In this document: positions 2,651 to 55,300 of the stretch, piece after piece
Position numbering within the stretch: the first letter of the stretch is position 1
Layout of the letters: each line of letters begins with the position of its first letter
Source of the DNA: Rhizophagus irregularis
Taxonomy: Eukaryota
Assembly: GCF_026210795.1 (NCBI RefSeq)
Contig: NC_089432.1
Location: 4,278,001 to 4,342,000 of the forward strand
Direction: 5' to 3'
Length of the DNA: 64,000 bases
Made by a program: the position numbers and the translations under genes
The notes under the pieces: model-generated
Database searches by the model: none
What the model was told of the DNA's origin: nothing
The model's input: only the letters and a program-made list of their open reading frames with translations

Positions 2651-5611
2651 ATGGACCAATGTATTGAAGGTAGCTGAAATATTTTTTTATTTATAAACAA
2701 TTCATGTTTAATATCTTACATAATTCAACTAATTACATTCTTAATTTAAAAAACTAGATTGTAAGTAGTATATATAATTTACAGTAAATACTTTTATATT
2801 ATCTTTATATTTAACTAATTAATAATTAATAATACTACAGGGTGTAAGTTATATGATATCTATATTTGTATTATTTATATAATTTAAACTAACTAATTTC
2901 TTTATTTAAAAAATTATTTTGTAATTTATTTTAGTTGGTAAGCCATCATAGTAATTTATTTATTTAATTATATCATTACTTATTGTTATAATATTTATAT
3001 ATAATTTAAACTATATAATTTCTTTATTTAAAAAATTATTTTGTAGATGGTAAGTTATTTATTTAATTCTATTATTACTTATTGTTATAATATTTATATA
3101 TAATTTAAACTAGTATCTAATCTCTTTATTTAAAAAATTATTAAATAATATAGCGTGTAAGTTATTTATTTAATTCTATTATTACTTATTGTTATAATAT
3201 TTACATATAATTTAAACTATCTAATTTCTTTATTTATTTAATAGAACGTAAGTAATAAATTATTTGTTTAATTCTATTATTACTTATTATTATAATATTT
3301 ACATATAATTTAAACTGTCTAATTTTTTTATTTAGGGAGTAAGTTATTTATTTAATTCTATTATTACTCATTGTTATAATATTTACATATAATTTAAACT
3401 ATCTAATTTCTTTATTTAAAAAATTATTAAATAATATAGTTCGTAAGTTATTTATTTAATTCTATTATTACTTATTGTTATAATATTTACATATGATTTA
3501 AACTATCTAATTTCTTTATTTAAAAAATTATTTCGTAGAAGGTAAGTTATTTATTTAATTCTATTATTACTTAATGTTATAATATTTACATATGATTTAA
3601 ACTATCTAATTTCTCTATTTAAAAAGTTATTAAATAATATAGTGTGTAAGTTATTTATTTAATTCTATTATTACTTAATGTTATAATATTTACATATGAT
3701 TTAAACTATCTAATTTCTTTATTTAGGGAGTAAGTTATTTATTTAATTCTATTATTACTTATTGTTATAATATTTACATATAATTTAAACTATCTAATTT
3801 CTTTATTTAGGGAGTAAGTTATTTATTTAATTCTATTATTACTTATTGTTATAATATTTACATATAATTTAAACTATCTAATTTCTTTATTTAGGGAGTA
3901 AGTTATTTATTTAATTCTATTATTACTTATTGTTATAATATTTACATATAATTTAAACTATCTAATTTCTTTATTTAAAAAATTATTTCGTAGATGGTAA
4001 GTTATTTATTTAATCCTATTATTACTTATTGTTATAATATTTACATATAATTTAAACTATCTTTAAAAAATTATTAAGATCTAGCTTGTAAGTATCTCTA
4101 TTGTTATATATTTATATAATATTTATTTGTTAATTGAATTCTTTTATTTAAAAAATTCTGTTACTTTAGTTGGTAAGTTGTAAATTATAGGTTATTATGT
4201 ATTTATCCAAAAACTAAGACTTATATTACATTAAATTCCTATTTAAATTTTAGAGTAAGTAATAATTTATTTTAGTGTAAATTATAATACAATCTATAAT
4301 ATAATTTTAATTATTTAAATTTATAGATTTGGGGGAAGTGGAAACACAATTATAGATGATTTTATTCTTGAAAAAAAATTAAGATGGATTCCTTATAACA
4401 AATTTAAAAATGTTGAATATCTTAATGAAGGAGGATTTGGTACTATATACAAAGCTATTTGGTTAAAGAATTATGGAGGTGAAGAAGAAGTAATTCTTAA
4501 ATGTCACAAGAATTTAAATGAAAATTTAAATGAATTTTTGAAAGAAGTATGATAGATTGATAGTATATTATTTTTTATTTTTATAATTTATATTAATAAA
4601 TTATTATTAATTTTTGTAGTGGGACTATCATAAGAATTGTTTAAATTCATCATATGAAATTGTAAATTTTTATGGATTTACAAAAGATCCAAAGATTTCA
4701 AAATATATAGTAGTAATGGCTTATGCAAATAATGGTAATTTAAGAGAAAATTTAACAAGAATAGTCAAAAATAATTGGAATCAAAAATTATATATGTTGT
4801 ACAGAATTATTGCTGGACTTAGTAAGATACATGAAAAAAATCTTATTCATTGTGATTTTCATGATGGTAATATTTTAAATCATAATGAGAGTGTACTTTA
4901 TATTAGTGATTTAGGATTATGTCAACCTGTAAAATCGGTTTTGGAAAAGTATGATATTTATGGTGTTATACCATTTATGGCTCCTGAAGTTTTAAGAGGT
5001 AAATCTTATACTCCAGCTAGTGATATATATAGTTTTTCTATGATTATGTGGGAACTTACATCTGGAGTACCACCATTTAATAATAGAGCACATGACATTC
5101 AACTAAGTTTAAGTATTTGTAAAGATGGTGAACGTCCTGAAATTATTGAAAATGCTCCACAATGTTATGTAGATTTAATGAAAAGATGTTGGAATGAAGA
5201 TCCATTAAAAAGACCATCTTCTAAAGAAGTATTAGAAATTATTAATAAATGGATTTTCCGTTCTAATGAAGTCAATGATGAATTAAAAAGCAACATTATG
5301 GAATTTATAAATGCACCAATTAGGCAGTATAACAATCTTGTTACTCAACCTCATCCTAAAGCATGTTATACAAGTCGCTTACTTAATTTTACTAGTAAAA
5401 AATTGAATGAAATTATTGAAAGTGAAGATTCACAAGCTAATGTAGAAGCAAATGAAATACTAGTAAGTGAAAATTTGAATGATTATATAATTAAGGATTT
5501 GGGGTCATTAGGTATGTATTATGATATATAAAAAATTAATCTTGCAAATTATTTATGTGAAATTAATTTTATTTAATATTTAATTTAGATATTAAAACAG
5601 ATGAAAATTAA
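2651..5611 (+). CDS. TKL-family protein kinase with a micro-exon-encoded N-terminus
   Basis: Predicted exons: 2651-2669 (MDQCIE), 16 three-nt exons and a one-nt exon (2758-4254), 4327-4546 (FGGSGNTIIDDFI..WIPY..EGGFGTIYKA..VILK), 4620-5511 (HCDFHDGNIL, SDLG, APE, SDIYSFSMIMWE), and 5589-5611 ending in TAA. The kinase core has no stops. Confidence 0.8.
2670..4326 (+). repeat. Tandem array of intron plus micro-exon units (18 introns, 72-109 nt)
   Basis: Unit consensus GTAAGTTATTTATTTAATTCTATTATTACTTATTGTTATAATATTTACATATAATTTAAACTATCTAATTTCTTTATT(..)TAG. Sixteen junctions read AG-NNN-GTAAG and one reads AG-A-GTAAG. The core copies at 3050-4084 are nearly identical. Confidence 0.9.
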
Positions 5612-7215
5612 CTAGTAGTCATTGTTTGTTTTTAAAAAAAAATTATATATTTTTTTTTAAGCGATATTTGATATTATACATTTAAAAGAAATTGTTCTTT
5701 ATTTTATTCTTTTTAAATTTATTTAAATGCTAAGACTAGAGTCTAGTAAAATATTTTACAAAATTCTTAGTTTGTAATTTAAATAATTCCTTTTTTTTTC
5801 TACTTATAATTATTTAAACACTAAGACTAGAGTGGTAAATATTTTACAAGTTTCTTAGTTTGTAATTTAAATAAATCTTTTTTTTATAACTTTTCCAATT
5901 ATTGAGATATAAATTATCAAAATAATAATATAAACCCATTTCCAATGATAATGTATAGGCCAATAGCCTAACACTAGCCATTTTCTGTTTGATCACATGT
6001 TTGTACATAGCTCTGCATTAGTGTTTCGATACGTTTCTGGGTTCAAGTCTAGGGTGTCCAGGATTTGACGTCGTGATGGCCCAAAAATCAGGCGTGAAAA
6101 ATCACAAAAATCGTGAAAATCGTGATCCATAATTTCAGCCAGAATTACCATAATTCTGGCCAGAATTAACATAATTCCGATTATAAAAAACTTTTTAATA
6201 ATTTGATATTCTATACAAATTTTATTTATTTATTTACAATTAAGTAATAAATTTATACATTTATATTATTCATAAATCATCAATTCATTACTATAATCAT
6301 CATTATTACTAAGATTAAAATAAAGAAAATTAAGCATTTGAATATTTTCTTCTTTAAGCGCTACTCTTCTATCTGATAAAATGCTTTTATAACTAGAAAA
6401 ACTACGTTCAATATCTACACCAGATACTGGCAACCATATATATATTAAAGCCAGTGAACTAAGTTCTGGTAATATATGTCTTTTACCTCGCCAATACAAA
6501 TCCAAATCATCAAACTCTTCAATAGATTCATTAAGTCCACAGTAAATAGCCCATTCTTGTATTAAAGTATCAGTAGGAACATCAGCAAGTTTTAAACAGG
6601 CGTATAAAGTGTTGAAAAATGCCATGTGTTGCTCAACGCCAAAAAATGTAGGGAAACGAACCCTTTGTCAATCAACGCCACCTAAAAACGTTGAAAAACG
6701 CGTAAAACAACACCAATTTAAATGTAAAACAACATACAGTAAAACAACGATAGTTTAAAAACGTGTATACAATGTATAAAAACGCGTATATTGATATTAA
6801 AAATGCGTAAAGCAATGATTTTATTGTATATTATTAATATATATATTATATAAAATATGTAAATTTATTTATGATAAAATACGTATCAATTCAAATACAT
6901 TATCTAATGTAAATTCCTCTTGTTATAATTGGATTGCCGCAGATTTTTAAGCGATCAACGTACTAAATTTCCGTTGACATAGCGCCCCTGGTGACACAAC
7001 CATAACAAGGTGGGAATGTGATTTGTACAACTAAATCACTTGATTGATCTTTCTACAAACTGAAACGCGATAATTATATTAATATTATTAACTGAATGAT
7101 ATTGCTAAATTGCAATTGATACATAATATAATGCATACTAGAATAATACATATAGATTAGAAGACAAAAAATGACAACAACGAATAATATCAAATTATAA
7201 AAGTCACGTGAACTT

Positions 7216-9472
7216 TTATTGCTCTTCTTCTAAATCAGCAACTTCTAAATCAGCTGCTTGATTATCGTCCGTCGTATGCTCATCATAAACATCATCAACA
7301 CGATTATCAACTCCAATGATTTCATCATCATCGTCAATAGGTGTTATAGGTGTTTTGGGCGAAGACTCACATTCACATTCTTCAGAATCCTAAATAAAGA
7401 AATACAATATTACTAGTAATTTAATTTAAAACATTACATACAATTCAGTTGAGTACTTACCACGTCTGTATCTGTTATATTTCCGGTCCATGAATCGACA
7501 ATGTCTGCATCGATTTTTGACGAAAGGTGTTCCTCGTCAAATATAACTTCTAATACCGACTGAACCCAAATGGCATTTTCATTTGTACGCTCTTTATCAG
7601 ATGCAAAAACCGATTTAATTATTAACGAAATATAAGTATCAGACGACGGATCATCTGAGTCGCTCGGTTTGTATAAATCTTCATGGACCTGTTGAACGTT
7701 TTTACTTGCTTTCCATGTTCGCATCTGTTGTTTGCTGAAATTATCTTTGAATGGCGTTATTCTATTAATACCGAAAGTACACCACAAACTTTCTTTCAAT
7801 TTTCTAATGTAGTAACCTTTTTTAACGCGATTTGCAGCAAGTAACTATATTTAATAAAATAAACAAGTTGTTATAAATTTGGCAATTAATGACTAATATA
7901 TAATACAAATACTACTTACTTGTGAATGCATTCTATCATCCCACAAATAATCGAACGAAACTCCTTTTCCGGACAACTTCATGAGTATTTTGGCGGATGT
8001 TTCATCATTTTCTAATTTTTCTTTAAGGCGATTTTTCATTTGTCAGTCGGTTACTCGTCGATGCTCATGAAATAATTCATAAGAAAGATCTTTAATCGCA
8101 TCCTTAATACATACAAATTGTTATATTTAGTAAATAATATAAAGAAATACATAACTTTAAACCATATATTTACGTGATAAAATTCATCTGAGTTTTTGTC
8201 TTTCTTTTTCGTTTTACCCTTTTTTTTAACCTCGACTTCAGTTTCAACGTTGCGATGAGAATCTAATACCGACATTATATTTGAAATCTGGTCTTTTTGT
8301 TCGTTTAACATAGCTTCAAACCTTTCTTGATTATTAATAATCGTGTTGAGTTTTGATGCTGTTTTTTGATTAATTTGTATTAATTTGGCAAATTCACCAG
8401 AACTAACTGCTATAAATTATCGTTAATAAGAATAATAAGAACCAATTTGATAATTTATTAACAAAACAACAATGAACAAACAGTATATATCGTATCTAAC
8501 CTTGATCCGTTACTTTAGATGATGATGTTGTCGCATTATTATTTGATGGCGATTCTTTACTAATCACTGCCTTAACGCTGGATGATGATGATTTACTAGA
8601 ACCGGATGCTGCTTTACCACCAGATGCTGCTTTACCAGACGCTGCTTTACCACCAGATGCTGCTTTACCAGACGCTGCTTTACCACCAGATGCTGCTTTA
8701 CCAGACGCTGCTTTACCAGACGCTGCTTTACCACCAGATGCTGCTTTATCAGACGCTGCTTTACCACCAGATGCTGCTTTATCAGATGCTGCTTTACCAC
8801 CAGATGCTGCTTTATCAGATATCGTTATTTTAATAGAGGAAGGAGAAGAGAAGGAAGGAGGAGAAATTACCACCGAAGGGATATAAGAGGATATTGTTGA
8901 TGATTCATTTATTGCCTGATGAAAACAATAAAATGTATTTAATAAACTAATAATGTATAATATAAACAATAACAAAATTGATAACTGATATTACTTGAGA
9001 AGATCTTTTGGTAGTTTTATTGGTACCGATAATAATCTCATCAATATCTCTATCACGAAACAAATCTAACCTTGCAATTTTCGTCTTTTTTGGAGTCTCT
9101 ATTTGTGAAGCGTCTGAAATTGTTTGATGATTGGCTTCGGTATCTGTTAATTATAATGTATTTTTAGATATTCGTTCACACAAGTTCAAAAAAAAACTAA
9201 AATAAAACCTTTCAAATTATTTTGTTCGTTGATCTAAAAGATATTAATTATATAAGTATATTTATACAATCATAATAATTTACAACCAAATATATATAAT
9301 AATTTAAAGTTAAAATAATTACTTCTATATTCATACTCGTTGACGATCTAGTAGATCTAGTAGACCTAGTACTAGATCTAGTAGTAGGTTTTGGGCGTTT
9401 TAAATTATTAAAATCTAAAGAGCGTTTGCCGCTGGTTTTATTATTATTATTTTTGTTGTCGTCATTATCCAT
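7216..9472 (-). pseudogene. Accessory multi-exon gene of the Plavaka element (Ser/Lys/Ala/Gly low-complexity region, acidic C-terminus)
   Basis: ATG at 9472 (MDNDDNK). The ORF pieces at 9248, 8496, 8051 and 7434 join at GT-AG sites and end at TAA 7216-7218. One in-frame TGA at 8043-8045. No domain recognised. Confidence 0.6.
8604..8820 (-). repeat. Coding minisatellite of 15- and 18-bp units (ASGKA/ASDKA/ASGGKA)
   Basis: Repeated GATGCTGCTTTACCACCA and GACGCTGCTTTACCA on the + strand. Confidence 0.9.
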
Positions 9473-24596: not shown

Positions 24597-25586
24597 GCTA
24601 TGCAAGGATTTTTAGTGATTACCAAGATTTAAACTTTCAACAAAAGGTAAGACTTTTTATGACCGTCACGCGCCAAGCCCATTTATTATATCAGAAGCAT
24701 GTATCACACATCAAAAAGAACTTTTTAGACAAATCCAATGTTTCACTCTGAAGAAAATCTCATGCAGTCCTTTAGAAAAAAAAACTATTCCATTCAATGC
24801 CATCCATTCTAACGAGTTATTTAACAAATGGAACAAATCAACAAAATTATTACCTCGTTATAATATGGAATAAGTTACGATGTCACCTATAAAGCCAATT
24901 GTCATAGAACACTCATTACATGCCCTAAAAGTTCGAAAAATTTTCAAATTTCAAAATTAATTGATTTTTGAGTTAAAGAAATGTGAAGGGTATTTCAAGC
25001 CACAAAAACCAAATCAAATTACTGAATTGAAGAGTCAATTTTTAGCCGCTAAATGCAAAACTTATATATTTTATGAGTTGCTATCTTTTCTTTATCTATA
25101 TTCCATTTCAAATTCAACACTTACACCATCAGAGTATAATTTTTACGTCCCTTATTTTTTTTTGCTAACAACACACGTAACCAAATACTAGAAAGGTCGA
25201 TCTTAAGCAAATCGATCGTATATACTTTCAACCATAAATTTGTCCACTTTGCCCTTAACACCCAAACCTATTATCAAATACATTATTCCTACTCCAACAT
25301 TAATAATATTCATACAATTTATAGTAAATTTTTTTTTCAAATTTCATTATGACGTTATTATATGAATGAAATTACTGCGTATTGCGGTACAAACATCGAC
25401 TGATTGACTTTTTGTTTGGTAACAGGGTAATACAGGTAGTACCAAATCACTCTAATCACTCCTGTACGCTTGTACAACTATCATCGGAGAAAAAAAAATT
25501 ATAAATAGGCAAACAATAAAACTTTCAACAATTTTTTTTTAAATTTTACTGTTAACTTATTAATCAATACATCCTATATTTTCAAA

Positions 25587-27866
25587 ATGCAAGATACCGA
25601 GAATACAAATGAATGGGTTAATTGGATTGAGGAAGTTGTTGATAAAGAATATTTTAAATTTTATGAATACAAACAATTTAATAATATTCAATATATTGGT
25701 ACCGGAGGTTTTGGAAAAGTATATCGTGCAAATTATAAAAATTCAGGAAAACTATTTGCGTTAAAATCTTTTTTAAATCTTAATAACATCACAGTGAAAG
25801 AGATTGTTCGTGAGGTAATTTAATATAAAATACATTCTTTTTCGTTTATGATTTTGTTATAATATAACATTTTAAAAAATTTGAATTTTATTTTAGTTAA
25901 AAATTCAACGTGAAGTTGATTTTCATGATAAAATTATTCGTTGCTACAGAATGACAAAACTTGAGTCAGGTATCATTAAGTTACCTTAATAAATAGTATA
26001 ATATTCTTTTAATCGCAAAATCGCCAAATATATTTTATTAATTATTCCTTTTAATCATTAGAAGATTATAATAATTATTGGGTAGTAATGGAATACGCCG
26101 ATGGTGGTAGTCTTCGAAACTATTTAAAGAAAAACTTTAAAAAGCTTACTTGGGACGACAAATATAGTATGGCATACCAGTTATCTTGTGCCATATTATG
26201 TTTACATAACGAAGGAATAGTGCATCGTGATTAGTATTATTTGTCCGTTTAATAATAATATTATGCTTGTATTACCTACTTATTTGAATTTATATATGTT
26301 TCTTTAATAGCACTCCTGTAATATACTAGTCTGTAATAACACAATCAAGTTAGCAGATTTTGGATTACCAAAAAGAATTGGAGCATCCAATTTTCAATCT
26401 AAATTATTTGGGATGGTCCCTTATGTCGACCCAAAAAGCTTTAGTGGACAAAGTAATAATAATAACCAATCCACACAATTGTACTTATTAAATGAAAATA
26501 GTGATATTTACAGTGTTGGAGTATTATTATGGGAGATATCTAGCGGACAACCTCCTTTTTATGTTGAAGGTGAACAATATGAAATTGGCTTAGCTTTAGA
26601 AATTTCACAAGGTCTTAGAGAAACTGTTGTTCCTAATACTCCTGAAGAATATGTAAAAATATATACTAGTGAGTAAAATTTTAGATTTTATATTTTTATA
26701 ATTTGAATATTATTTTAACTAGTTTTGAATTACATTTATTTCTAGAATGTTGGGATGGAGAACCAGATAATCGTCCAAAAATATATCAAGTTGTTGATTG
26801 GCTAAATGCAATAATTACAAAATCAGATGTAATCATAGAAAACCAACAAATTTCAAATGAACGAGAACTTAATGAGGCTTCTATAAGTAATAATGATTCA
26901 GTATTACAAGTAGAATTATCTCAACTTATTCAAAATTTTGATAAAATAAATATAAAAGAAATTGATCCTATGATAATATTAAGTAAACAAAAAAATTTTC
27001 TAATTGAAGATTTTAACATTATAATTGATGTAATAAATGATTTTATTATTAAATTAAATAATAAAGGGCTAGAATGGAAAGCAGAAAAGCAGAAAACTAT
27101 TGAATATTTTAATAATCATAATTTAGATTCACAAGAAATTTATAATTGGTTGTTAGACAATCAAAATAGTTTAAATCCTATTTTTATTCTTGGATATTTT
27201 AATTATTATGGAATTGTAACAAGTGAAGATAATGAGAAAGCATTTAATTTGTTCATTAATGCGTCAGAAAAAAATCATATATTAGCACAATACTTTGTTG
27301 GTGAATGTTATTTTTATGGAAATGGGACTATAAAAAATGAAAAATTAGCTTACAAATACTATAAGAAAGTAGCTAATAAAAATTTATCAAGTGGACAATT
27401 AAATATTGGTTGTTGTTATGATTATGGAATGGGTATTAAAAAAGATTTAAAAGAGGCATTTTATTGGTATGAAAAAGCTGCAAATAATGGAAATATAACG
27501 GCAATGTACAATCTCGGCCTTAATTATAAAGACGAAAAAGGCGTTAAAAAAGATTATGATAAAGCTTTTGAGTTATTTAAACAATCAGCTAAAGGAGGGT
27601 ATTTGGGTGGAATAATGATGTTAGGATATTGTTATAATAAGGGTATTGGAACTAAAATTGATAAGCAAAAAGCATTTGAATTTTATCAAAATGCTGCAAA
27701 TTTAGGACATAATGGTGCACAAAATAATCTTGCTATAATGTTTCAATTAGGAGATGGGATTGCAAAAGATATAGATAAAGCGATTTATTGGTATAAAAAG
27801 TCTGCTGAACAAGGATATGAATTAGCAAACAATAATTTAATAAAGCTTCAGAATAGTTTATTTTAA
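25587..27866 (+). pseudogene. TKL kinase plus Sel1-repeat protein, probably inactivated
   Basis: GTGGFGKVY, FALK, DFG, and Sel1 repeats (YWYEKAA, AQNNLA). At the catalytic-loop exon end it reads CAT CGT GAT TAG (26232-26234), where the paralogs have HxDL|gt, giving a stop or frameshift. Confidence 0.8.
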
Positions 27867-31725: not shown

Positions 31726-33334
31726 CCGGGCGTAGTTGCTTCTGATATTGCTAGTTAAACATAAGTAGTATTTGACATTAATGGATTTGGATGTGTATCA
31801 TCTTGAAGTTTGTTTCTTGAACCATTTTCGTTTGAATGATTTTCATTTTTTGATGATTTTACTTCCATTTTTAAATATTCAATGTAACTGACTTTACCTT
31901 TTTCAATGAATTCAATTAAACTAAAAAAAAGTAATTACACCTTTTCAAGTTTTTAATCTTTTCATCCTTTTTGTCTAATTCCTTTTCCAGCTTTCTATTT
32001 TCATGAAACCTTTTATAATAAAAAAAAGTGTAAAATAAAAATCCATTATCCAATTATAAAAAATAACACAAATTATTTTTTTGAGAATGAGTTTTTGAGT
32101 CGCTATAATATCATTTTTTATTTCGAGGTAAAATTTTTTTAACCATGATTTTTAGGTGTAAAATGAAAAATATCTAGTTTGAGGAATAACTTGTCAACAA
32201 AACTTTTATCCCTGATTATATTAAAAGAAATTAAATGTTTTACATTAAAATAAAATTAATAAGTTGTAAAGAGAATTCAAGTATTATTAAAAGAAAATCA
32301 GGATGGTAGTCAACTTTACAGTATAGTCTAACATAAATTGTCTTATAACATGTAACAGTTGTAACACCTCTTTTATAAGATTGTGTAAAAGATGTAATTT
32401 AACTTATTAAAATTCTGAAATGATATTGGTTAGTGATTTTGACGGACTGATATACAGTCTAATTATACCTTTTATGTCAAATATTTTTTTTTTACTGATT
32501 TTATTGATGCGCGGTTTAAATTGTTATATAGTAACAAAATAATATGTAACGCGTCTCCACAAGTGATGACTCATAATTAATAAAGATTGAAGTTTAACTA
32601 CTTTAACTTATTAAAATATTGGTTGGTGATTTATATACAGTTTAATTATACCTTTTATGTGCAGTATAAACAATAGACTATTTTTTACTATTTTTCCATT
32701 TTTGCAAGTCCGCAAGAGTTGATTACAATATTAGTATAATTTATACTTTTTATATGAAAAGCTTGTGCAACAAAAAAAAATATTTATATAGTCCTTTTTT
32801 CTTTTTTTTTTATTACACATCCTCTTATTCCAAACATCCTTCTATTCCACACATACACATCCACTTATTTTTTTCCTCCTTTAGAGAAAGGTAACAAACT
32901 TTTTTCGCGCAAATAAATATTTTTGTTTTTTTTTTACGCGAAAAAAATAATATTCTTCCTTTCTATTATTCTTGAGAAAGGTAACAAACTTTTTTTTGCG
33001 CAAATAAATATTCTTATTTTTTTATTGCGCAAAGAAATAAATATTCTTTCCGCAAATATTTTTATTTTCATATATGTATTTTTTTTATCCATTTAAATAA
33101 ATATTTTTTTTTTTTACACAAATAATTATCTAGGGTATACCATTTATTCCAAGATCAGGACAACAAATGTTGAACAATAAATAAGTATTACTCCTAATAT
33201 GATCAACACAGAGATAAAGTCTAGAAAGGTGAGAAACGTTAGACTAGACTAACCTACTCAAGAAGTCAACCAAAGGATAACATCTCCAAATCATTGTCAT
33301 CAAGACCCAGGTTCTATAACAAAATCAACTGGAA

Positions 33335-34468
33335 TTTATTTATCACATTTAGTACATTTGGTGAGTTATTGTGTTTAAATTTAAAAAGTTTGGGCTTTAA
33401 TTGCAATGAAGGCTTTTTTACGATTTAGTTCATGGGTCTGCTCACGTATGTATATGTCTAAGGTTTTCCAAACTTGCTTAGGCTTATTTGTCGGGATTCT
33501 TTGTGAGTCTAGATGAAATCTGGTATATGTGCCTGAGTAAGCGTGAATGAGCATTCTGATATCAGCCTAGTAATTCAATAACTCATTTATCCGAGTGATC
33601 ATAGGATAACCTTTCTCTTTAATCTAGATTATTATTTTCCTTGCGCAAGAAATCGGATTTAATTTAATTTATCACATGTGGTACATTTGGTGAGTTGTTG
33701 TGTTTAAATTTAAAAAGTTTGGGCTTTAATTGCAATGAAGGCTTTTTTACGATTTAGTTCATGGGTCTGCTCACGTATGTATATGTCTAAGGTTTTCCAA
33801 ACTTGCTTATGCTTATTTGTCGGGATTCTTTGTGAGTCTAGATGAAATCTGGTATATGTGCCTGAGTAAGCGTGAATGAGCGTTCTGATATCAGCCTAGT
33901 AATTTAATAACTCATTTATCCGAGTGATCATAGGATAACCTTTCTCTTTAATCTAGATTATTATTCTCCTTGCGCAAGAAATCGGATTTAATTTAATTTA
34001 TCACATGTGGTACATTTGGTGAGTTGTTGTGTTTAAATTTAAAAAATTTGGGCTTTAATTGCAATGAAGGCTTTTTTACGATTCAGTTCATGGGTCTGCT
34101 CACGTATGTATATGTCTAAGGTTTTCCAAATTTGCTTATGCTTATTTGTCGGGATTCTTTGTGAGTCTAGATGAAATCTGGTATATGTGCCTGAGTAAGC
34201 GTGGATGAGCGTTCTGATATCAGCCTAGTAATTCAACAACTCATTTATCTGAGTGATCATAGGATAACCTTTCTCTTTATTTCTAGGTTATTATCATCAA
34301 GATCCAGGTTTTCTGTATTTATCAATTCTATTGATATATTTTTCTAATATTAATTTTATTATCAAGACCAAGGTCTCCTTACACAAGAAATCCATAACAA
34401 AATCAACGAATTTATTTATCACATTTGGTACATTTGGTGAGTTATTTTGTTTAAATTTAAAAAGTTTG
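33335..34468. repeat. 329-bp tandem repeat, about 3 copies plus a partial fourth start
   Basis: The anchor CATTTGGTGAGTT has its GG at 33360, 33689, 34018 and 34436. The copies are nearly identical. Confidence 0.95.
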
Positions 34469-36396: not shown

Positions 36397-38707
36397 TTAT
36401 AATTCAATGATTGAAGGAAAATTATCATGAATTACTATTTGATTATTTTGAAGTGATTTATATTTATCTTGTGCATCTAGATCTCCTTGTTTGGCAGATT
36501 TTTCATACCAATAAATTGCTTTACCTATATCTTTTGTAATTCCATTTCCTTCTTCATACATTAAAGCAAGATTATATTGTGCTATAACATCCCCTAAATT
36601 TGCAGCACTATGATATAATTCAAATGCTTTTTTCTTATCAATTTTAGTACCAATACCATTACTATAACAATATCCTAACATAATTATTCCATCTGAATAT
36701 CCTCCTTCAGCTGATTTATTATATAAATCAAAAGCTTTATTAAAATTTTTTTCAACAACAATTCCATTTTCATAAAATCTACTAAGATTATATATAGCTA
36801 TAATATTATCATTATTTGCAGCTTTTTCATACCAATAAAAAGCTTTTTGATAATCTATATCAACTCCTATTCCTTTTTCATAAAAATAACCCATTTCTAA
36901 TTGCCCACTTGAAAAATTTTCATTAGCCACTTTTTCATAATATTCAAATGCTAATTTTTCATTTTTTATAGTTCCATATCCATAACTATAACAATAACCA
37001 ACAAAAAGATGTGCTATTATATGATTTCTTTGTGATGCATTAATAAACAAGTTAAATGCTTTCTCATTATTTTCACTTGTTACAATTCCATAATAATTAA
37101 AATACCCAAGAATAAAAATAGAATTTGAACTATTTTGATTATCTAATAACCAACTATAAATTTCTTGAGAATTTATATTATAATTATTAAAATATTCAAT
37201 AACTTGTTGTTTTGCTTTAAGTCCTTTATTTTTTAATATAAAAATAAAATCATCTATTTCATCAATTATAATGTTAAAATCTTCAATTGGAAAATTTTCT
37301 TCTTTACTTAGTATTAAAATAGGATCAATTTCTTTTATATTTAATTTATCAAAATTTTGAATAGGTTGAAATAAATCTACTTGTAAATTTGAATTATTAG
37401 TACTTAAAGAAGCCTCATTAATTTCTTGTTCATTTAGTATTTGATCATTTTCTACTATTACATCTGTTTTTGTCATTATGGCATTAAGCCAATCAACCAC
37501 TTGATATATTGTTGGTCGATTATCAGGCTCATCATCCCAACATTCTAAAGAACCATATATAATTAAAGATTAATAAAAATAGTATTTAATTTAAGAATTT
37601 TAAATTTAAAATATTACTTACTGGTATAGATTTTGATATATTTTTCAGGAGTACCAGGAACAATAGTTTCTCTAAGACCTTGTGAAATTTCCAAAGCGAA
37701 ATCAATATCAAATTGTTTATCTTCATCATAAAAAGGAGGTCGCCCACTAGATATCTCCCATAATAATACGCCTAAACTATAAATATCACTTTTTTCATTC
37801 AATGAGCATATTTGTGTTGATTGATTGTTATTATTTCTTTGTCCACTAAAGCTTTTTGGATCAATATAAGGAACCATCCCAAATAATTTAGATTGAAAAT
37901 TGGATGATTCACCAATTCTTTTTGATAATCCGAAATCCGCTAATTTGATTGCATTATTATGGATCAATATATTATAGGAGTGCTATTAAAGAAACATATG
38001 TATATTCAAATGAGTAATACAGGTATAATATTATTATTAATCAAATAATGTTAAATTAATTACCAAATCACGATGCACAATTCCCGTGTTATGTAAGTGC
38101 GATACAGCACTAGATAACTGATATGCCAAATTATACTTGTCATCCCACGTAAGCCTATTAAAATTTTCTTTCAAATAACTTCGAAGAGTACCACTATTAG
38201 CATATTCCATTACTAGCTGGTAATTATTATGATTTTCTAATTAATAAAAAAAAAATAATTAATAAAATGAACTTTGTGAAATTTTTCAATCAAAAGAATA
38301 GTTATATTTATTAAGGTGACTTTTATAAATACCTGACTCAAGTTTTGTTATTCCATAGCAACGAATAATATTATCATGAAAATCAACTTCGTGTTGAATT
38401 TTTAACTGAATAAAATATAAAAATATTTGAAATAAATATATTAGATAAAATTTATAGACGAAAAAAAATGTATTATACATTAAAATACCTCACGAACGAT
38501 TTCTTTCATGGTGATATTATCAAGACTAAAAAAAGATTTTAACGCAAATTGCTTTTCTGAATTTTTCCAATTTGCACGAAATACTTTTCCGTAACCTCCA
38601 GTACCAATATGTTGAATATTATCAAATTCTTTATATTCATATGATTTAAAATATTCTTTATCCACTGATTCCTCAATCCAATTAACCCATTCATTTGTAT
38701 CTTGCAT
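36397..38707 (-). CDS. TKL kinase plus Sel1-repeat protein, apparently intact, 5 exons
   Basis: GTGGYGKVF, FALK, GIVHRDL|HSYNIL, LADFG, SDIYSLGVLLWE, CWD, and multiple Sel1 repeats. Canonical GT-AG introns. Confidence 0.9.
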
Positions 38708-39923
38708 ATTGATATTATTGAATGTATTGAATAATGTTAACAGTAAAGTTTAAAAAAATGGAAAGTAAAAAAAATCGGTAAAGTTTAACTTGTACGCCTA
38801 TTTTATATATTTTTTCTCCGATGTTAGTCGTACAGGCATTTAGTACTACCTCAAAACAAACAAAAAAGTCAATCAGCCATGGTACGCAGCACGCAGTAAT
38901 TTCATGCACAGTATATTTCATGACGTCATCATTAAAATTATCATCAAATGTCGTACTGTAAAAAGAATTTTTAAATTTCTTATGCAAGTCGGTTGGATCT
39001 TTGCAGGCGTCTTCTGTTAGTGAGATTCAACATTCAGTCTTGCTTGTACAGTAGATGTTTCAGTGCTATACCGTAGGATGAAGTACCAATTGGTTGCTAT
39101 CTATTCAAAAATTATGAGACGCGGATCAGTAATGCACATATCGGAAGAAAAAGATAAATAGAATCTCCGGCTATGAACAAATCTATACTAACATATTATT
39201 TGTCCCAATAATCGATAGAATAAATATAGTCGCAAAATCACTGTATATTTATATGAGGCATACAGTGTCAGAAATAACCCCGCCGAAAATTTATGTTGCT
39301 TGCATTCCGTGATGCTGTACGAAAAAAAAATGGACAATATCATTATTTTGATTGGCACTCTCATGTGACATTGTGACATGTGGCTGATTTTCGATTGATA
39401 AATTTTTTTTCGTAATTTCCTTGACACATCGCTGACTCAGTTCGTAGTATTACTGACTCACAGTTCGTAGTAATTAGTCAACAACTGTTTATGGAAACAT
39501 ATATATATGTGATAAATAATCAAAATGTCGAACTATTCTTCGCTATTTCGAGTACTTTCGCTTTAAAAATTTTCTTATTTGTTGAGATTCAAAAAAAGTG
39601 AAAAAGATAATCTATACAAATTCCATTTTTTTTCTTTTAATACCGACCGAGTCTATAATTGAAGAAAGGATGTATTCTCGGATAATTTTTGCTGCAAAAA
39701 TTTGATTAAATTAATTTACTTTTTTTATCATCTTATTTTAAGTTCATTAATATGAATAATTTCAATCGAATAGATGCATCCCAGGTACAAACTAAATTCG
39801 AGGAAAATTCCCTACCTGTTAGATCTAACGTTGTACCCATAAGGTCTTTTACTTGTGTTATACTGAAAAATTACTTTTTTGACCCTCGTTTTAATTCTCG
39901 ATTTTTGCGATTGCAGATATACC

Positions 39924-42900
39924 ATGGCATATTATCTCATTCTAGGTGAAGTTCCCGCTAAAAGGAAACTTGATTTTGTTAAGTTCGATTTCTCAGAACG
40001 CGTCATGATACTCAGGAATGCTATCTATGATAAGAAGAAGAACACCTTTACCAATAAAAATATTGACGAAAACGACCTCATATTATGGAAAGTCGATATT
40101 CCTTTCGATGGTGAAAATGATAAGCTGACGATGCTTGATGAAAAGTTTGATACAATTAACATTGAACAAGATCTTGAAGGAAAGGAAATGTTACCAGGAG
40201 ACGAAATTTCAAAACATTTAAAAAACTTTGATAAACCAACATCCTTAATTCACATAATCGTGCAACCGCCCCAGCCCGCCACCACTGGTAAGTGTCTCCC
40301 AATGGTTTACCTCTCGAACAAGAAATTCGCAGTAACAAAATATCGAGTTTGTTCTGATCTCTTTTTTTCGCGTTAAAGTAGGTCCCTCTCATCAAGGCGT
40401 TCCACAAGGTACGGTATCTCTAGTTAAATTTCCTGTGTTGTCTTAGTCTTTGTATTCTGGCCCGCCATTATTGATACATATAGGTTACTTGCACCGTATC
40501 TATTTGTTAATACACTGTGCTTTCTTATTGTTCACAAAACATAGTGACGTCGATCGAAGATGCCATGAAAAAGATTTTGGAGGGAATTCATGAACAAATG
40601 GACGTAGACAATGTAGACAATAATAAGCCCAAGCCCATGGCTCTAAAACAACGTGACCTTAAGCAAGCTATTGATGTGATTGACAGGAATTTTTGTAATT
40701 CCTTAGATAAACAAGAAGCTATAAAAAAAGAAACTCCCACGGCAAAGACAAACTATCGAATCCTTTTATGCGGTGGGGCACCTGGCATAGGTAACTTTCA
40801 TACATTCTCTTGTATGTTTTTACAGCAGATAAAGCGGTTTTAGCCTTCTAATTAACAAATTCAAACTATAATTCACTAGGAAAGACACGTTATGGAGTTG
40901 AATTGTTTAATTGTCTCGACAAAGAATGGAAGATATCAAAAGGCCAAAAGCCTTACATGCTTTACATGCTTTTTGATTTCACTAATGGTTATGCTTTAGA
41001 TGAGTATGAAATCCAGGGGGATATTAAAATTGCATCAGAAATCATTCTTGGATTGCGGTTGGCGTACCACTATTTGGTCCACAAAAAATATGTGATGAGT
41101 TTTACAGTGTTCCGTACGAAATCCAATGAATATAAGCAATTTTTCAGATTGAGTAATGTCCTTTTATACATCCACAACCTTGAACATGAAAGTCTGATTC
41201 AACGTGGCAAGCATCTTTTCATTTTTCTTCAAATTGATGAATTTTAGCTAATTTTCAAAGAGCGAAATGAAGGAGAAAAATTATTTAAGCAGTTAATGTA
41301 TATTCTTGGGCATCATATGGCCGGAGAAATTCCTGAAGTATTTGTGCAGACTCTACTTTCAGGTACAGCACCACAGGATGCAATACGAGCAATGGAACCT
41401 ACAATGTATTCTATTGAACCTCTTAACCTTCCACTGTTATTCTTGGAGTCACGTCTTGATATTATGAGAGATTTTGCAACAAATCACGATGTTTCTGATT
41501 GTGTGTGGGTACCAAAAGTTTAGATACATCAATTACTTCTTGATACAGGTGGTCTTCCACGTGCTTTGGAGTATCTTTTTACAGAATTTTTCGGGCAAGG
41601 TTTTACAAGTGTTAAGGAATTTTTTGAAGAACTTGAAACAAAGACTCCATCAAGAATTTACAGCAAAATCGTATACAAGCTTGATGATGCATATAACATC
41701 AGCACTTATGCTAGTGATCATAAAAAGCTTATATATGAGATTGTTTATAGAAATATTATGGAAATTGAATCAAAAATGTCTGATGAACTACAAGATGGTC
41801 GCTTTATTATAAAATTGGAACATTTGGAGCGTGACAGGCACTTGATACTAAGGAAATTGGAAGTAACACGTAAAGTTCTAATTGATATACCATACTTCTT
41901 TATGTATATTTACGTTGATGAACTTGGAATTTTCTCAAACAAATTAGACAGAGCATTTTTACCTGATTCGGATTGGTCATGGGAGGATTTTGAAATATTT
42001 ATTGCGGATTTTATAGCATCAAAAATCCGTATGATTCATGTTCTGGAAAAAACCAAATCATTAAAACTTGGGGATTTCTTTCATGGTGCACAGGGTAGTG
42101 ATGTTACACTGAACCTGTTGATCAATTTCGAACCTGTTCAAATCTATAAATTAAAACATCAATTTCCATGCCTGAACCTTTCCGCAAAAGAGGGAAATTA
42201 TGATTTAAATAAGCTAGAGCCGGGTTACATTATGATCAATGGTTATTCGGCACCATTTGCAGATGTCTTTTTTTTAGTAAATAACCCCGAACCTATTCTT
42301 ATTGCTATTCAATGCAGAAAAAGAAAAAAATCTCTTGATTTGAGAACAATTAAAGATGAACATGAGAAAAATTCGAATATTTCTGAAAAAATGGAAGAAA
42401 AGGCCGAAAAAATCAGAGAAAATGCTAAAGTAAAAGGCAGAGAGATGAAAGAAAAATTGCAAAAAGAGGCAGAGCAATATACAAAACTTGCAGATTTTTT
42501 GAGCAAATATCGTATTATCACAATTTTTATTACAACTCAGCGTTTCAGGGAGGAATTGGAATCTCTTCCTGATGATTGTATTTTGATTCATCAAGAAAAC
42601 TTTGACATTTTCTTCGGGCCTGTATTTTCCTCTCGTACCAAGCTTGTAATGACCAGAGATTCAAATCCAAATCTGAGTACTGCAAGTGAATTGACGTCAA
42701 AGTTTAAAGCAATTAAGAAAGATATAGGAGAGAAAATTGAAGAAGCTAGAAAAAGAAAGACTTTTAGGTCACATAAAGAGTTCTGTAAAGATTTTCCAGA
42801 ATTGGCTGAAGATGATGAGATCCGAAATAATTTTGTTTACTACCCATACCCTCCACATATAGAATCCTTTGAACATCCAAACAAGAGAACACGTGTTTAA
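39924..42900 (+). pseudogene. Crinkler (CRN) family protein: ubiquitin-like N-terminal domain, P-loop NTPase, putative restriction-endonuclease-fold C-terminus
   Basis: LILWKVDIP..IHIIVQPP header, short GPSHQGVPQ exon, Walker A GGAPGIG|KT split by an intron, Walker B IFLQIDEF, and PFADVF..IAIQCRK. In-frame TAG at 41245-41247 and 41521-41523. The exact start codon is uncertain. Confidence 0.85.
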
Positions 42901-52358: not shown

Positions 52359-55300
52359 ATGGAAGGAAGTTCAAGTCAGGTAAATTATTATTTTAAACAA
52401 TATTAAAATTTAATTAATTGCATATCAATAAAACTAACTTTATATAATAATAGAGTGGAAATTCTTCTACTAATACTACTTCTGGTAGCTTAGAAAATAA
52501 TGACCCTGTTTCATATAAAACGATTTTGCATAAAAATATTCTCAATAATCATATCCTTCTCAAATTAGAAGAGGATGGTTTCACTACGCCAGATGACAAA
52601 GTGGAAGAACTTTTAAAAAATCTAACTAAACCAAGTTATTTGTATGCACTTAAATTACTTTTTGAAAATTTACAAAATGAATTTTCATCTCAATCATTAA
52701 TAAATTCGTTAGAAGCTCTAATTGATTCCACATCTTTTAATTATTATTCCAAAGAAAGCATGGCTAGACTAGAATTACATTTAAGGACTTGGGTGACAGT
52801 CTTAGAAAGAATTTGTTTTTCACCAATAGTACTTAGTAAAGTACTTCGAGATAAAGTTTATAATTCTTTAGCAAATTTTGCAGAAATTCACCGTAAAACA
52901 ACTCAAGTTATCGAAATAGGACTTGATAAAAATTTTAGACCAAATTTCAATCAATTCAATCAACAAAACAATAATCAAGATGAACAAATTATTAAAAAAC
53001 GTAATTATAATATTGATTTTTTATTAATCCATTTGCGAGATACTCTTCATAGTCTACGTGATGATGAAACTTGGTTTCAAGAAATTATACGAAGGACTAA
53101 AGATTTTCTTAAAGCTGCATTAAATATTACACCAGGAATTTTATCAATAACAGGAGTTTCTCTTCCAAATGATAATTGTTCAATCTTATCATTGCTTAAT
53201 CAAGTACGTCAGAGTTTAAGTTTTAAATATCCAGTAGCATCTTATTATGTAGATTGGAGAATTATGTTAATAATTCAACATAATCTTTTCATTTGGTCTG
53301 AAAGTGAAAAGATTATAAGTAAAAAATTTGGAGAATTAGTATTAATGGAATATATTTGGAGCTTTTTGGAAAGAGAATGGGTTAATGCTGTGGACAAATC
53401 TATTTTAGATTCTCAAACAAAATTTGATGAAGTATCAAATAAAGTCACTAAAGCTTTGAAAACCCTATAAAAAAAAATTTCTTTAAAATGTACTTAAAAT
53501 ATACTTATATATTTTTAAAATATATCTAAAATATACTTAACATTTTAAAATATACTTAAAATATACTTAAAATTGCAATTTTAAGTATATTTAAAGTGTA
53601 AAATTTTGTACTTAAATTATACTTAAATTATATTTAAATTGCAATTAAGTATATTTTAAATATAATTTAAGTATAAAATTTCATACTCTAAATATACTTA
53701 AAATTGCAATTTTAAGTATATTTTAAGTACATTTAAAAATTTTAAGTACATTTTAGATATATTTTAAAATATATAAGTACATTTTAAGTATATTTTAAAG
53801 AATTTTTTTTTTCATAGGGAAAATACTGGAGGCTTTTTAAATGAACTTGCTGGAAATGAACCTATAGCACTACCACATAGTTTGTGGTTTGGAATATTAG
53901 ATCTTGCACAAAATCTTATCCAAAGATCATCTCGAATAGCAACATATGGTCTTTGTTATTATTTAGCAATTGAATCACTTAATAAAGCACCAAGCAGTTT
54001 TATTCAATTTAAATCTATTGAATTATTATTAAATTTATATAATATTGATAATAAAATGTTTTCAATGATTGAAATTGATTTTGATCAATACACGCAAAAA
54101 TCAAGTGAAAATAATTTGGAAGATTCTTTAGAAAAATTTCAAAATTTATTAACTTTTGTTAAAGAGAAATATCTTGAAGATTTAAAAATTCTAAGTAATA
54201 ATGCTGGAAAAGGAAAAGAGGGAAAAGGAATAAACTTAAATCAAAATTCATATTTAAAGAAAGAACAAATATCAAATTCTAACATTTTAGATGTTATAGC
54301 AGATGAAATTACTTGTCCAATTAATGTGAACCAACGGATCAATTATGTATTTTAAAATGCCAACATATATTAGCATTAAGCAATTTAAAAAAATTGAAGC
54401 AAAAAATATGTCCTAATTGTCGAGAAAAAATTGAAGATAATGATATTAGATATTTACCACAAAATTCAATTTATAAAAATTTATATACGAAATTTTTTGA
54501 ATCTGGACATATTTTACCTTCAATTGAATTAGAAAATTCTGATCAATTATATGACAGTGATGAATCAGATAATTCGGAAGTTGAACTCATATTAACTAAA
54601 AAAAAGAAATTTATGAATTCAATTATTAAGTTAAATTCAAAAATATCATCCCCAATACTTTCAAGAATCACAAAAAAACAACATCCAACATACCAAAATA
54701 TTATAAAAGAAATAAATGAAAAAAATTATGAAAAAGCTGAATCTTTATGCAAAGAATTTATAAATTTTTTTCCTAAAAGTTATTCTTTAAGATGTATTTT
54801 AGCGTATGTTTATAGATGTCTTAACAATTACGAACAAGCACACTTATTTTTAAATGAGGCTATTGATTTAAATCCCAAAAGACCAGTTGCTTATTTTATT
54901 TGTGGAGAAATATTTTTTAGACAAAATGATTATGATGAAGTAATATATAATTTAAAAAAGTCAATAAATTATAAAGCAAAAATAAATAACTCATATATAT
55001 TACTCGGAAATAGTTACTTATTACGTAATTTTCTTGGTGATTATGCAATAGCTATAGGAAATTATAATATTGCATTAAAAAATGATCCAAATAATTATTT
55101 ATGCCTTAAAAATTGTGCATACGCTTATGAAAAAGAAGGAGATTATTTAAGTACATTAAATTTATTAGATAAATTATTAAATATCAATAAGGAGGATTCT
55201 TTGATTTTATGTTATTATGGAGAAATTTTATATAATATGACACAATATAGAAAAGCTATATCATACTTTACAAAAGCTTATACTATAGATCCAGAAAACA

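Follow-up and report, generated by a model that had tools for sequence, protein, structure and literature searches.

A protein kinase gene of Rhizophagus irregularis carries, ahead of its kinase exons, 16 consecutive three-base exons followed by a single one-base exon. This microexon architecture is real, and its layout is supported by RNA in the gene family. The gene lies in a 64-kb stretch of AT-rich fungal DNA, hereafter the window, to which all positions refer. Each unit of the array is a cassette of one intron and one three-base exon; the cassettes are spliced in the family, and we consider it probable that exchange between their near-identical introns rewrites the peptide preceding the kinase N-lobe.

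The microexon array and its kinase gene

The pattern YAGNNNGTAAG occurs 16 times in the window, every time on the + strand and between 2755 and 4177, compared with a mean of 1.63 in shuffled windows, among which 16 was reached in 0 of 100. In order, the microexons are ATT GGT TTG ATG CGT AAC GGA TTC AAG TGT GGA GGA GGA ATG CTT TTG, and then A (Table 1). An initial annotation, made from the sequence alone, had placed the array at 3047–4087, which does capture its homogenised middle, but the whole array is longer. At 3536–3546 the letters TAG AAG GTAAG make microexon 9 also a tandem acceptor, or zero-length exon (AG/GT), and thus a possible built-in skip.

Table 1 Features of the array gene, with positions in the window.
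Feature	Position	Strand	Description
Kinase gene, first coding exon part	2651..2669	+	ATG to phase-1 donor, MDQCIE + G; donor GTAGCT at 2670
Whole array	2670..4326	+	18 GT-AG introns (72–109 nt) separating sixteen 3-base exons and a single 1-base exon; G+C 13.7%
Microexon 1 ATT, constant in family	2758..2760	+	First triplet after 2669 in RNA loose ends
Microexon 2 GGT, constant in family	2841..2843	+	Second triplet after 2669 in the same loose ends
Microexon 3 TTG	2935..2937	+	Splice signals only
Homogenised core, introns 4–15	2938..4084	+	Near-identical 5' core; three shared acceptor-tail types, two singleton tails
Microexon 4 ATG	3047..3049	+	Tail TTTGTAG
Microexon 5 CGT	3154..3156	+	Tail AAATAATATAG; T opens TAA stop when joined to microexon 6
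Microexon 6 AAC	3245..3247	+	Singleton tail TTTAATAG; AA completes TAA; tail type used in partly spliced paralog reads
Microexon 7 GGA	3336..3338	+	Tail TTTATTTAG
Microexon 8 TTC	3440..3442	+	Tail AAATAATATAG
Microexon 9 AAG	3539..3541	+	Tail TTCGTAG; NAGNAG
Microexon 10 TGT	3643..3645	+	Tail AAATAATATAG
Three consecutive 84-bp units	3646..3897	+	81-nt intron and GGA each; microexons 11–13 at 3727, 3811, 3895
Microexon 14 ATG	3994..3996	+	Tail TTCGTAG
Microexon 15 CTT, constant in family	4085..4087	+	RNA loose ends with CTT TTG A before kinase exon
Microexon 16 TTG, constant in family	4170..4172	+	RNA loose ends with CTT TTG A before kinase exon
One-base exon A	4254..4254	+	RNA joints 4254-4327 GT..AG in 3 reads (X23) and 5 reads (X24)
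Kinase exon	4327..4546	+	FGGSGNTIIDDFI helix motif, Gly-rich loop EGGFG, VILK; joint 4546-4620 in 23 (X23) and 21 (X24) reads
Main kinase exon	4620..5511	+	HCDFH, DLG, APE intact; PF07714/PF00069
Last coding exon part, ends TAA	5589..5611	+	Joint 5511-5589 in 6 reads (X23) and 0 (X24)

To judge from its sequence, the array gene is a PF07714-type protein kinase and a member of the expanded Rhizophagus repertoire. At 100% identity, the 4620–5510 frame matches the kinase-like protein GBC22470.2 from Rhizophagus irregularis DAOM 181602; a protein search with this frame gave E ≤ 1e-30 for 1501 of 2297 candidates, and the named proteins among the 120 matches listed were from Rhizophagus. The Pfam family PK_Tyr_Ser-Thr (PF07714) scored 121 bits on 4620–5510 and 147 bits on the public model P0001, the cut-off (gathering score) being 23.1. 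All catalytic motifs are found, namely EGGFG (Gly loop), VILK (Lys), HCDFH (catalytic Asp), DLG (DxG) and APE. Directly 3' of the array-coded peptide stands an SGNxxIDxFI motif, from which onward a second kinase in the window (48675), belonging to another subfamily, can be aligned (E = 4e-11); upstream of this motif the second kinase has a Cys-rich segment instead of the array peptide. The N-termini of relatives read MGQC or MGQY, starts that we take to be a lipid-anchor-like motif, and that of the array gene reads MDQC; the acidic repeat of the relatives' first exon is absent from its exon 1.

Exon 1 has a phase-1 end, and the frame is restored by the one-base exon A, so every array codon is split 1+2 over a junction and the triplets are not codons. 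The initial annotation had units adding codons one at a time, which is right insofar as each unit adds one residue and wrong insofar as the exons are phase 1. A phase-0 reading, with 'codon-sized exons', was rejected, since it requires a 5-nt exon AGTAA and the reads carry a one-base A. A second donor is present 4 nt downstream, at 4254–4258 (A GTAA GTAAT), making a 5-nt exon AGTAA possible; it is the likely explanation of the 'SKFG' start and of the phase-0 misreading in many public models of the kinase family.

With all 16 microexons included, the product is MDQCIEDWFDA-stop, the TAA at codon 12 arising from CGT-AAC, a stop that had been overlooked in the initial annotation. Dropping microexon 5 (CGT) or 6 (AAC) gives a 399 aa ORF, and no other single skip does so. 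To yield a kinase, the array allele would have to skip one of these two microexons; otherwise it would presumably be a null allele.

Splicing of the array in the gene family

For the 3' flank, we used reads from two raw poly(A) RNA runs (X23 and X24) and two RNA contig sets (X18 and X17), and for the 5' flank X23 and X24 together with two contig sets of DNA type; from each raw run, roughly a quarter of the reads was used. Reads were placed on the array flanks, and the unit count at 2950–4087 is that of the assembly. The majority of reads came from paralogs, 16 of 2141 and 24 of 2491 being at least 99% alike to the window gene. At position 4335, 87 of 87 and 129 of 133 reads carried the paralog letter, and the window allele is therefore rare or absent in X23 and X24, a scarcity compatible with decay, with weak expression or with a difference between strains. 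No read among those placed on the flanks was traceable to the window gene's own variable microexons.

At the 5' end, 53 of 218 reads in X23 and 55 of 260 in X24 departed from the genome exactly behind 2669 and continued with ATT GGT GGA GTA CTG CGC. At the 3' end, each of the four RNA runs had loose ends before 4327/4336 that finished in CTT TTG A (66+153 reads in X23, 110+206 in X24, two contigs in X18 and one in X17), and the A that stands there ahead of ATTTGG is part of neither flanking splice site. These reads indicate that, in the family, splicing at both constant ends of the array follows the prediction, one-base exon included. The triplets upstream of CTT TTG A vary, for example ATC ATC ATC ATC TTG ATG, or ATG ACT ACT ACT, showing that the middle of the array differs between genes. 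That the triplets are exons, as first proposed from the genomic letters, was thus borne out as a layout spliced in RNA, mostly of paralogs.

Partly spliced reads were also recovered, in which AAATAATATAG was followed by TGT GGA (16 reads) or by GGA ATG (14 reads), and TTTAATAG by TGG GGG (16 reads). The loose-end strings are majority lines of mixed paralogs, with an agreement of 0.55–0.83 where several reads contribute; two strings before 4336 read TAG in frame, which we attribute to the mixing of genes. Eight of 10 read-derived strings were stop-free in phase 1 when read by hand, and the peptides read from them in this way (DWWSTAPAHA, HHHHLDAFE and YDYYSFE) abound in aromatic and polar residues. 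A 6-nt unit of a relative, ACCGCC, was seen in one DNA contig, in two runs.

At 2877–2918, poly(A) RNA contains many partly spliced molecules of family arrays, in which a retained repeat-type intron is followed by joined triplets; in other such molecules exon 1 is joined to unassigned letters and then to intron. Together these molecules suggest slow or out-of-order splicing. The 3' part of the intron at 2894–2915 reached a summed contig depth of 168,507 (X15) against 22–30 for single contigs, a figure that is not a copy number. The depth at 2872–2937, thousands-fold over single contigs in two DNA-type runs, hints at very many array units genome-wide.

The short AT-rich introns would be removed by intron definition, and not strictly 5' to 3', because partly spliced reads exist. 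It is possible, if on balance doubtful, that combinatorial splicing is the main source of variety, transcripts taking subsets of the microexons and CGT and AAC being rarely joined alternatives; such splicing could coexist with turnover of the DNA. The variable exons are all 3 nt long, hence any skip keeps the frame, and among the 4096 subsets of microexons 3–14, 2656 are stop-free, giving 1260 distinct peptides. The kinase frame is also intact behind the in-frame stop, the partly spliced reads tell of introns not removed in lockstep, and the Tuber nank genes described below, as far as excerpts of the literature on them go, offer a precedent. Yet two isoforms of one gene were not seen among the reads examined, and paralogs account for the variety of the loose ends. 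Moreover, a skip means that two adjacent short introns are read as one, which intron definition disfavours.

Exchange between units and divergence of the exons

The central introns are nearly identical, 12 of 12 matching intron 13 at 94–100% over 66–83 nt; introns 12 and 13 are the same, and intron 11 differs at 2 sites. The outer introns are more diverged: intron 3 matches over 45 nt, at 89%, and at E<1e-3 the outer ones give no match. Three acceptor subtypes cover 10 of the 12 central introns, those before AAC (intron 6) and CTT (intron 15) being singletons. The tail TTTATTTAG is followed by GGA in four of four cases (3336, 3727, 3811 and 3895, the last three in consecutive 84-bp units), AAATAATATAG precedes CGT, TTC and TGT, and TT(C/T)GTAG precedes ATG, AAG and ATG. 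On each of these points the initial annotation was confirmed.

Three SNPs are common to several intron cores, and each is confined to physical neighbours (introns 4-5; 10-11; 9-10-11). They span different acceptor tails, and the chance of such adjacency, for two independent sets, is ~0.008. Of 9 SNP-by-tail pairs, 7 fail the four-gamete test, or 4 when the unit is taken as tail, exon and next core. Shared SNPs in adjacent introns across subtypes imply exchange between units, and the pattern indicates that this probably proceeds by local unequal exchange or gene conversion, with recurrent mutation as the alternative. Growth of the array by unit duplication, as initially proposed, finds backing for both duplication and exchange in the shared SNPs and four-gamete failures, and we regard growth by unit exchange as well supported.

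Cassettes would be added, removed or swapped when near-identical introns cross over unequally or undergo gene conversion. Each cassette would add one residue and also alter its neighbour, because every codon is split 1+2 across a junction. The same churn would sometimes build a stop, as CGT-AAC may have done in the window allele; in 46% of trials, a random order of the 12 inner exons contained a stop, and nulls should therefore be a frequent outcome of shuffling.

Over the 52-nt intron core, introns 5–15 differ pairwise by 3.2% on average, as against 75% for the exons behind them. Within subtypes, where the counts exclude the two singleton introns, the outer introns, donor-adjacent columns and one 3-nt insertion, the minimum number of substitutions is 4 in 9 exon columns versus 19 in 266 intron columns (Fisher P = 0.0036). 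Weighting by consensus base leaves 4 exon changes against 1.5 expected (P = 0.036), and P becomes 0.55 when the comparison is made with those intron columns that hold any G/C, a set chosen on outcome. All four exon changes fall in two subtypes, with none in the GGA subtype. The direction thus agrees with the earlier description of substitutions concentrated in the triplets, but it rests on four events, and the apparent exon excess within subtypes is weak. The same pattern could arise without selection, because conversion of the core itself lowers intron divergence, and the diversifying selection on exons that had been suggested is unproven.

An account in which no selection acts is unlikely in our view, though several observations agree with it. 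The array would then be a tolerated minisatellite, spliced out and adding to a flexible N-terminus, and the window gene a recent null allele in a birth-and-death family. The in-frame stop on full inclusion, its frequency among random exon orders and the few reads assignable to the window gene all favour this account, as do the P values of 0.036 and 0.55 and the fact that conversion of intron cores alone would make exons seem fast. However, paralogs retain the one-base exon as well as the constant microexons on the flanks, and the exons are as different as random triplets while the introns are 97% alike. The 8 of 10 stop-free read-derived strings also contrast with the stops in 46% of random orders, a comparison that is not like-for-like because the window strings are longer. 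Most improbable is the view that the kinase has its start elsewhere and that the array upstream is an artefact of assembly or a non-coding, AT-rich satellite. The starts of the public models of the locus, the identity of introns 12 and 13 (by which one unit could be miscounted) and the placement of reads on the flanks would allow it, but the public models disagree among themselves, all units other than 12/13 are distinguished by SNPs or tails, and the view is largely refuted by RNA, in which exon 1 runs into ATT-GGT and the kinase exon follows CTT-TTG-A.

If cassette exchange does rewrite the N-terminal peptide, that peptide, rich in W, Y, H, D, S and G, may form a recognition or decoy surface selected for variety, which is the least supported step of the proposed mechanism. 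Only tentatively do we suggest a large kinase subfamily with a hypervariable N-terminal recognition or decoy peptide, diversified by DNA cassette exchange (between isolates and perhaps nuclei) and by RNA exon skipping. If true, this would be a repertoire generator of single-residue resolution for self/non-self or symbiont sensing, in a fungus long considered largely clonal, and hidden by the wrong N-termini of current gene models.

Public gene models, related systems and the surrounding window

Read in phase 0, the window array gives IGLMRNGFKCGGGMLL, and a similar I/G/L/V/M-rich stretch stands in 9 of the 23 models with an SKFG-type anchor (among 272 proteins), R. diaphanus models included. 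The length from IG to SK was 13–38 residues in 8 of 10 models measured, and single residues are repeated up to 8 times, as in GGGGGGG, IIIII and VVVVVVVV. We infer that these stretches are probably paralog arrays translated out of frame. From SKFG on, PKY27028.1 and POG61907.1 agree at 275 of 277 residues, and between their shared flanks they carry IILIIIIIVRLRLG and VVVVVVVV, respectively, stretches that differ in length and content. This difference is as allelic turnover would predict, and the two may be young paralogs, or the models may omit units. The number of units, which the initial annotation expected to vary between isolates or nuclei, appears from the indirect view of the gene models to vary between genes and probably between isolates, and conceivably might do so between nuclei.

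The RNA-supported D-W start was found in 0 of the 272 protein models, among them 22 OCT59 models, which we take to come from long-read-aided annotation. Five models with xEFGxS as the true N-terminus were considered and rejected, as this sequence resembles intron read-through. The public models of the window locus (P0001 and P0121-P0123) start inside the last introns or elsewhere and are mutually inconsistent. A metagenome scan for the TTG/A/kinase architecture returned four matches, all four by chance (lacking a kinase frame and an array), and viral contigs held no relative of the kinase exon. A three-unit pattern search gave 113 stretches; the seven inspected were all tandem repeats and none an intron array, six lying within long open frames and one (L079) being a short-period repeat.

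Three-base mini-exons in nank genes of Tuber were reportedly first described by Iotti et al. in 2012. The NACHT-ankyrin (nank) NLR genes of Tuber melanosporum contain, according to excerpts of the reports on them, dozens of alternatively spliced 3-bp mini-exons (PMC4986451, PMC13449251, PMC9815663). As far as these excerpts describe them, both cases concern an expanded fungal family in which runs of 3-nt exons (16 in a row in the window) can vary a short segment without a frameshift. Unlike the Tuber genes, the window gene encodes a kinase, and five of five proteins scanned had no NACHT or ankyrin Pfam match at E ≤ 0.01. Its array is N-terminal and the lineage Glomeromycotina, whereas the Tuber mini-exons lie, in the excerpts, at a C-terminal recognition domain; likewise, the evidence in the window points to cassette turnover at the DNA level, whereas alternative splicing is what those excerpts report for Tuber. 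By analogy, the window gene is best regarded as not a member of the nank genes but as probably working alike.

Micro-exon genes (MEGs) of schistosomes encode secreted proteins from exons of 3–81 bp with introns of up to 5 kb, as excerpts of PMC10526429 and PMC4350168 state. On that partial account they are a looser parallel, sharing with the array many very short consecutive exons, exon duplication and a fast-evolving segment. The window gene is no MEG: it encodes an intracellular-type kinase and has uniform 3-nt exons with near-identical introns of ~80–110 nt, 49 of its ~1200 coding nt lie in microexons, its introns measure 72–109 nt, and its MDQCIED N-terminus is not hydrophobic. Isolated microexons are on record in other fungi, where excerpts mention 27 three-nt and 13 one-nt exons in Coprinopsis cinerea, with 27 exons in 26 genes (PMC12230235), and a one-nucleotide exon in Fusarium CYP621A (PMC12940212). 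These are likewise 1–3 nt long, spliced and missed by annotation, but they occur, as excerpted, at about one per gene, whereas the window array has 17 in a row, built by tandem duplication.

For R. irregularis, excerpts of PMC6123716 and PMC10234402 describe an expanded PF07714 kinase repertoire of 2,533 kinase genes, and microexons go unmentioned in those excerpts. A full-text literature search, whose coverage leaves out most subscription papers and supplements, found no report of such arrays in mycorrhizal fungi or their kinases. Runs of 3-nt exons being known from Tuber nank, an array ahead of a mycorrhizal kinase is apparently undescribed, and we regard it as a new variant of a rare architecture.

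The array touches on the huge kinase repertoire of arbuscular mycorrhizal fungi and on variation in largely clonal fungi. Specificity may reside in such a short segment, which changes much more rapidly than the kinase that follows it, and one short amplicon from DNA and cDNA is enough to assay it. The absence of the RNA-supported start from public models amounts to a systematic failure of annotation, some models appearing to read the microexons out of frame. Seventeen consecutive exons of 1–3 nt also provide a natural test of how the spliceosome handles exons too short for exon definition.

The remainder of the window contains further genes and repeats. Recognised by eye, two kinase genes with Sel1-like repeats lie at 25509–27866 (+) and 36397–39026 (−), and a fragment of a third at 835–1251 (−). 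The first frame of a multi-exon gene at 39867–42900 (+) resembles what we take to be a Crinkler-type N-terminal domain. Near the array gene, fragments at 6266–6667 (−), 11199–13565 (+) and 14404–16035 (−) are presumably transposase-like, hAT-like and other. An 88-bp duplication follows the array gene at 5696–5885, and a 15/33/48-bp tandem repeat at 8496–8990 is open on both strands, with GGKAAS repeats on the − strand and PPDAAL repeats on the + strand. A 329-bp unit is repeated in 2.9 copies at 97% at 33333–34294, and AT-rich short-period repeats occupy 53482–53806.
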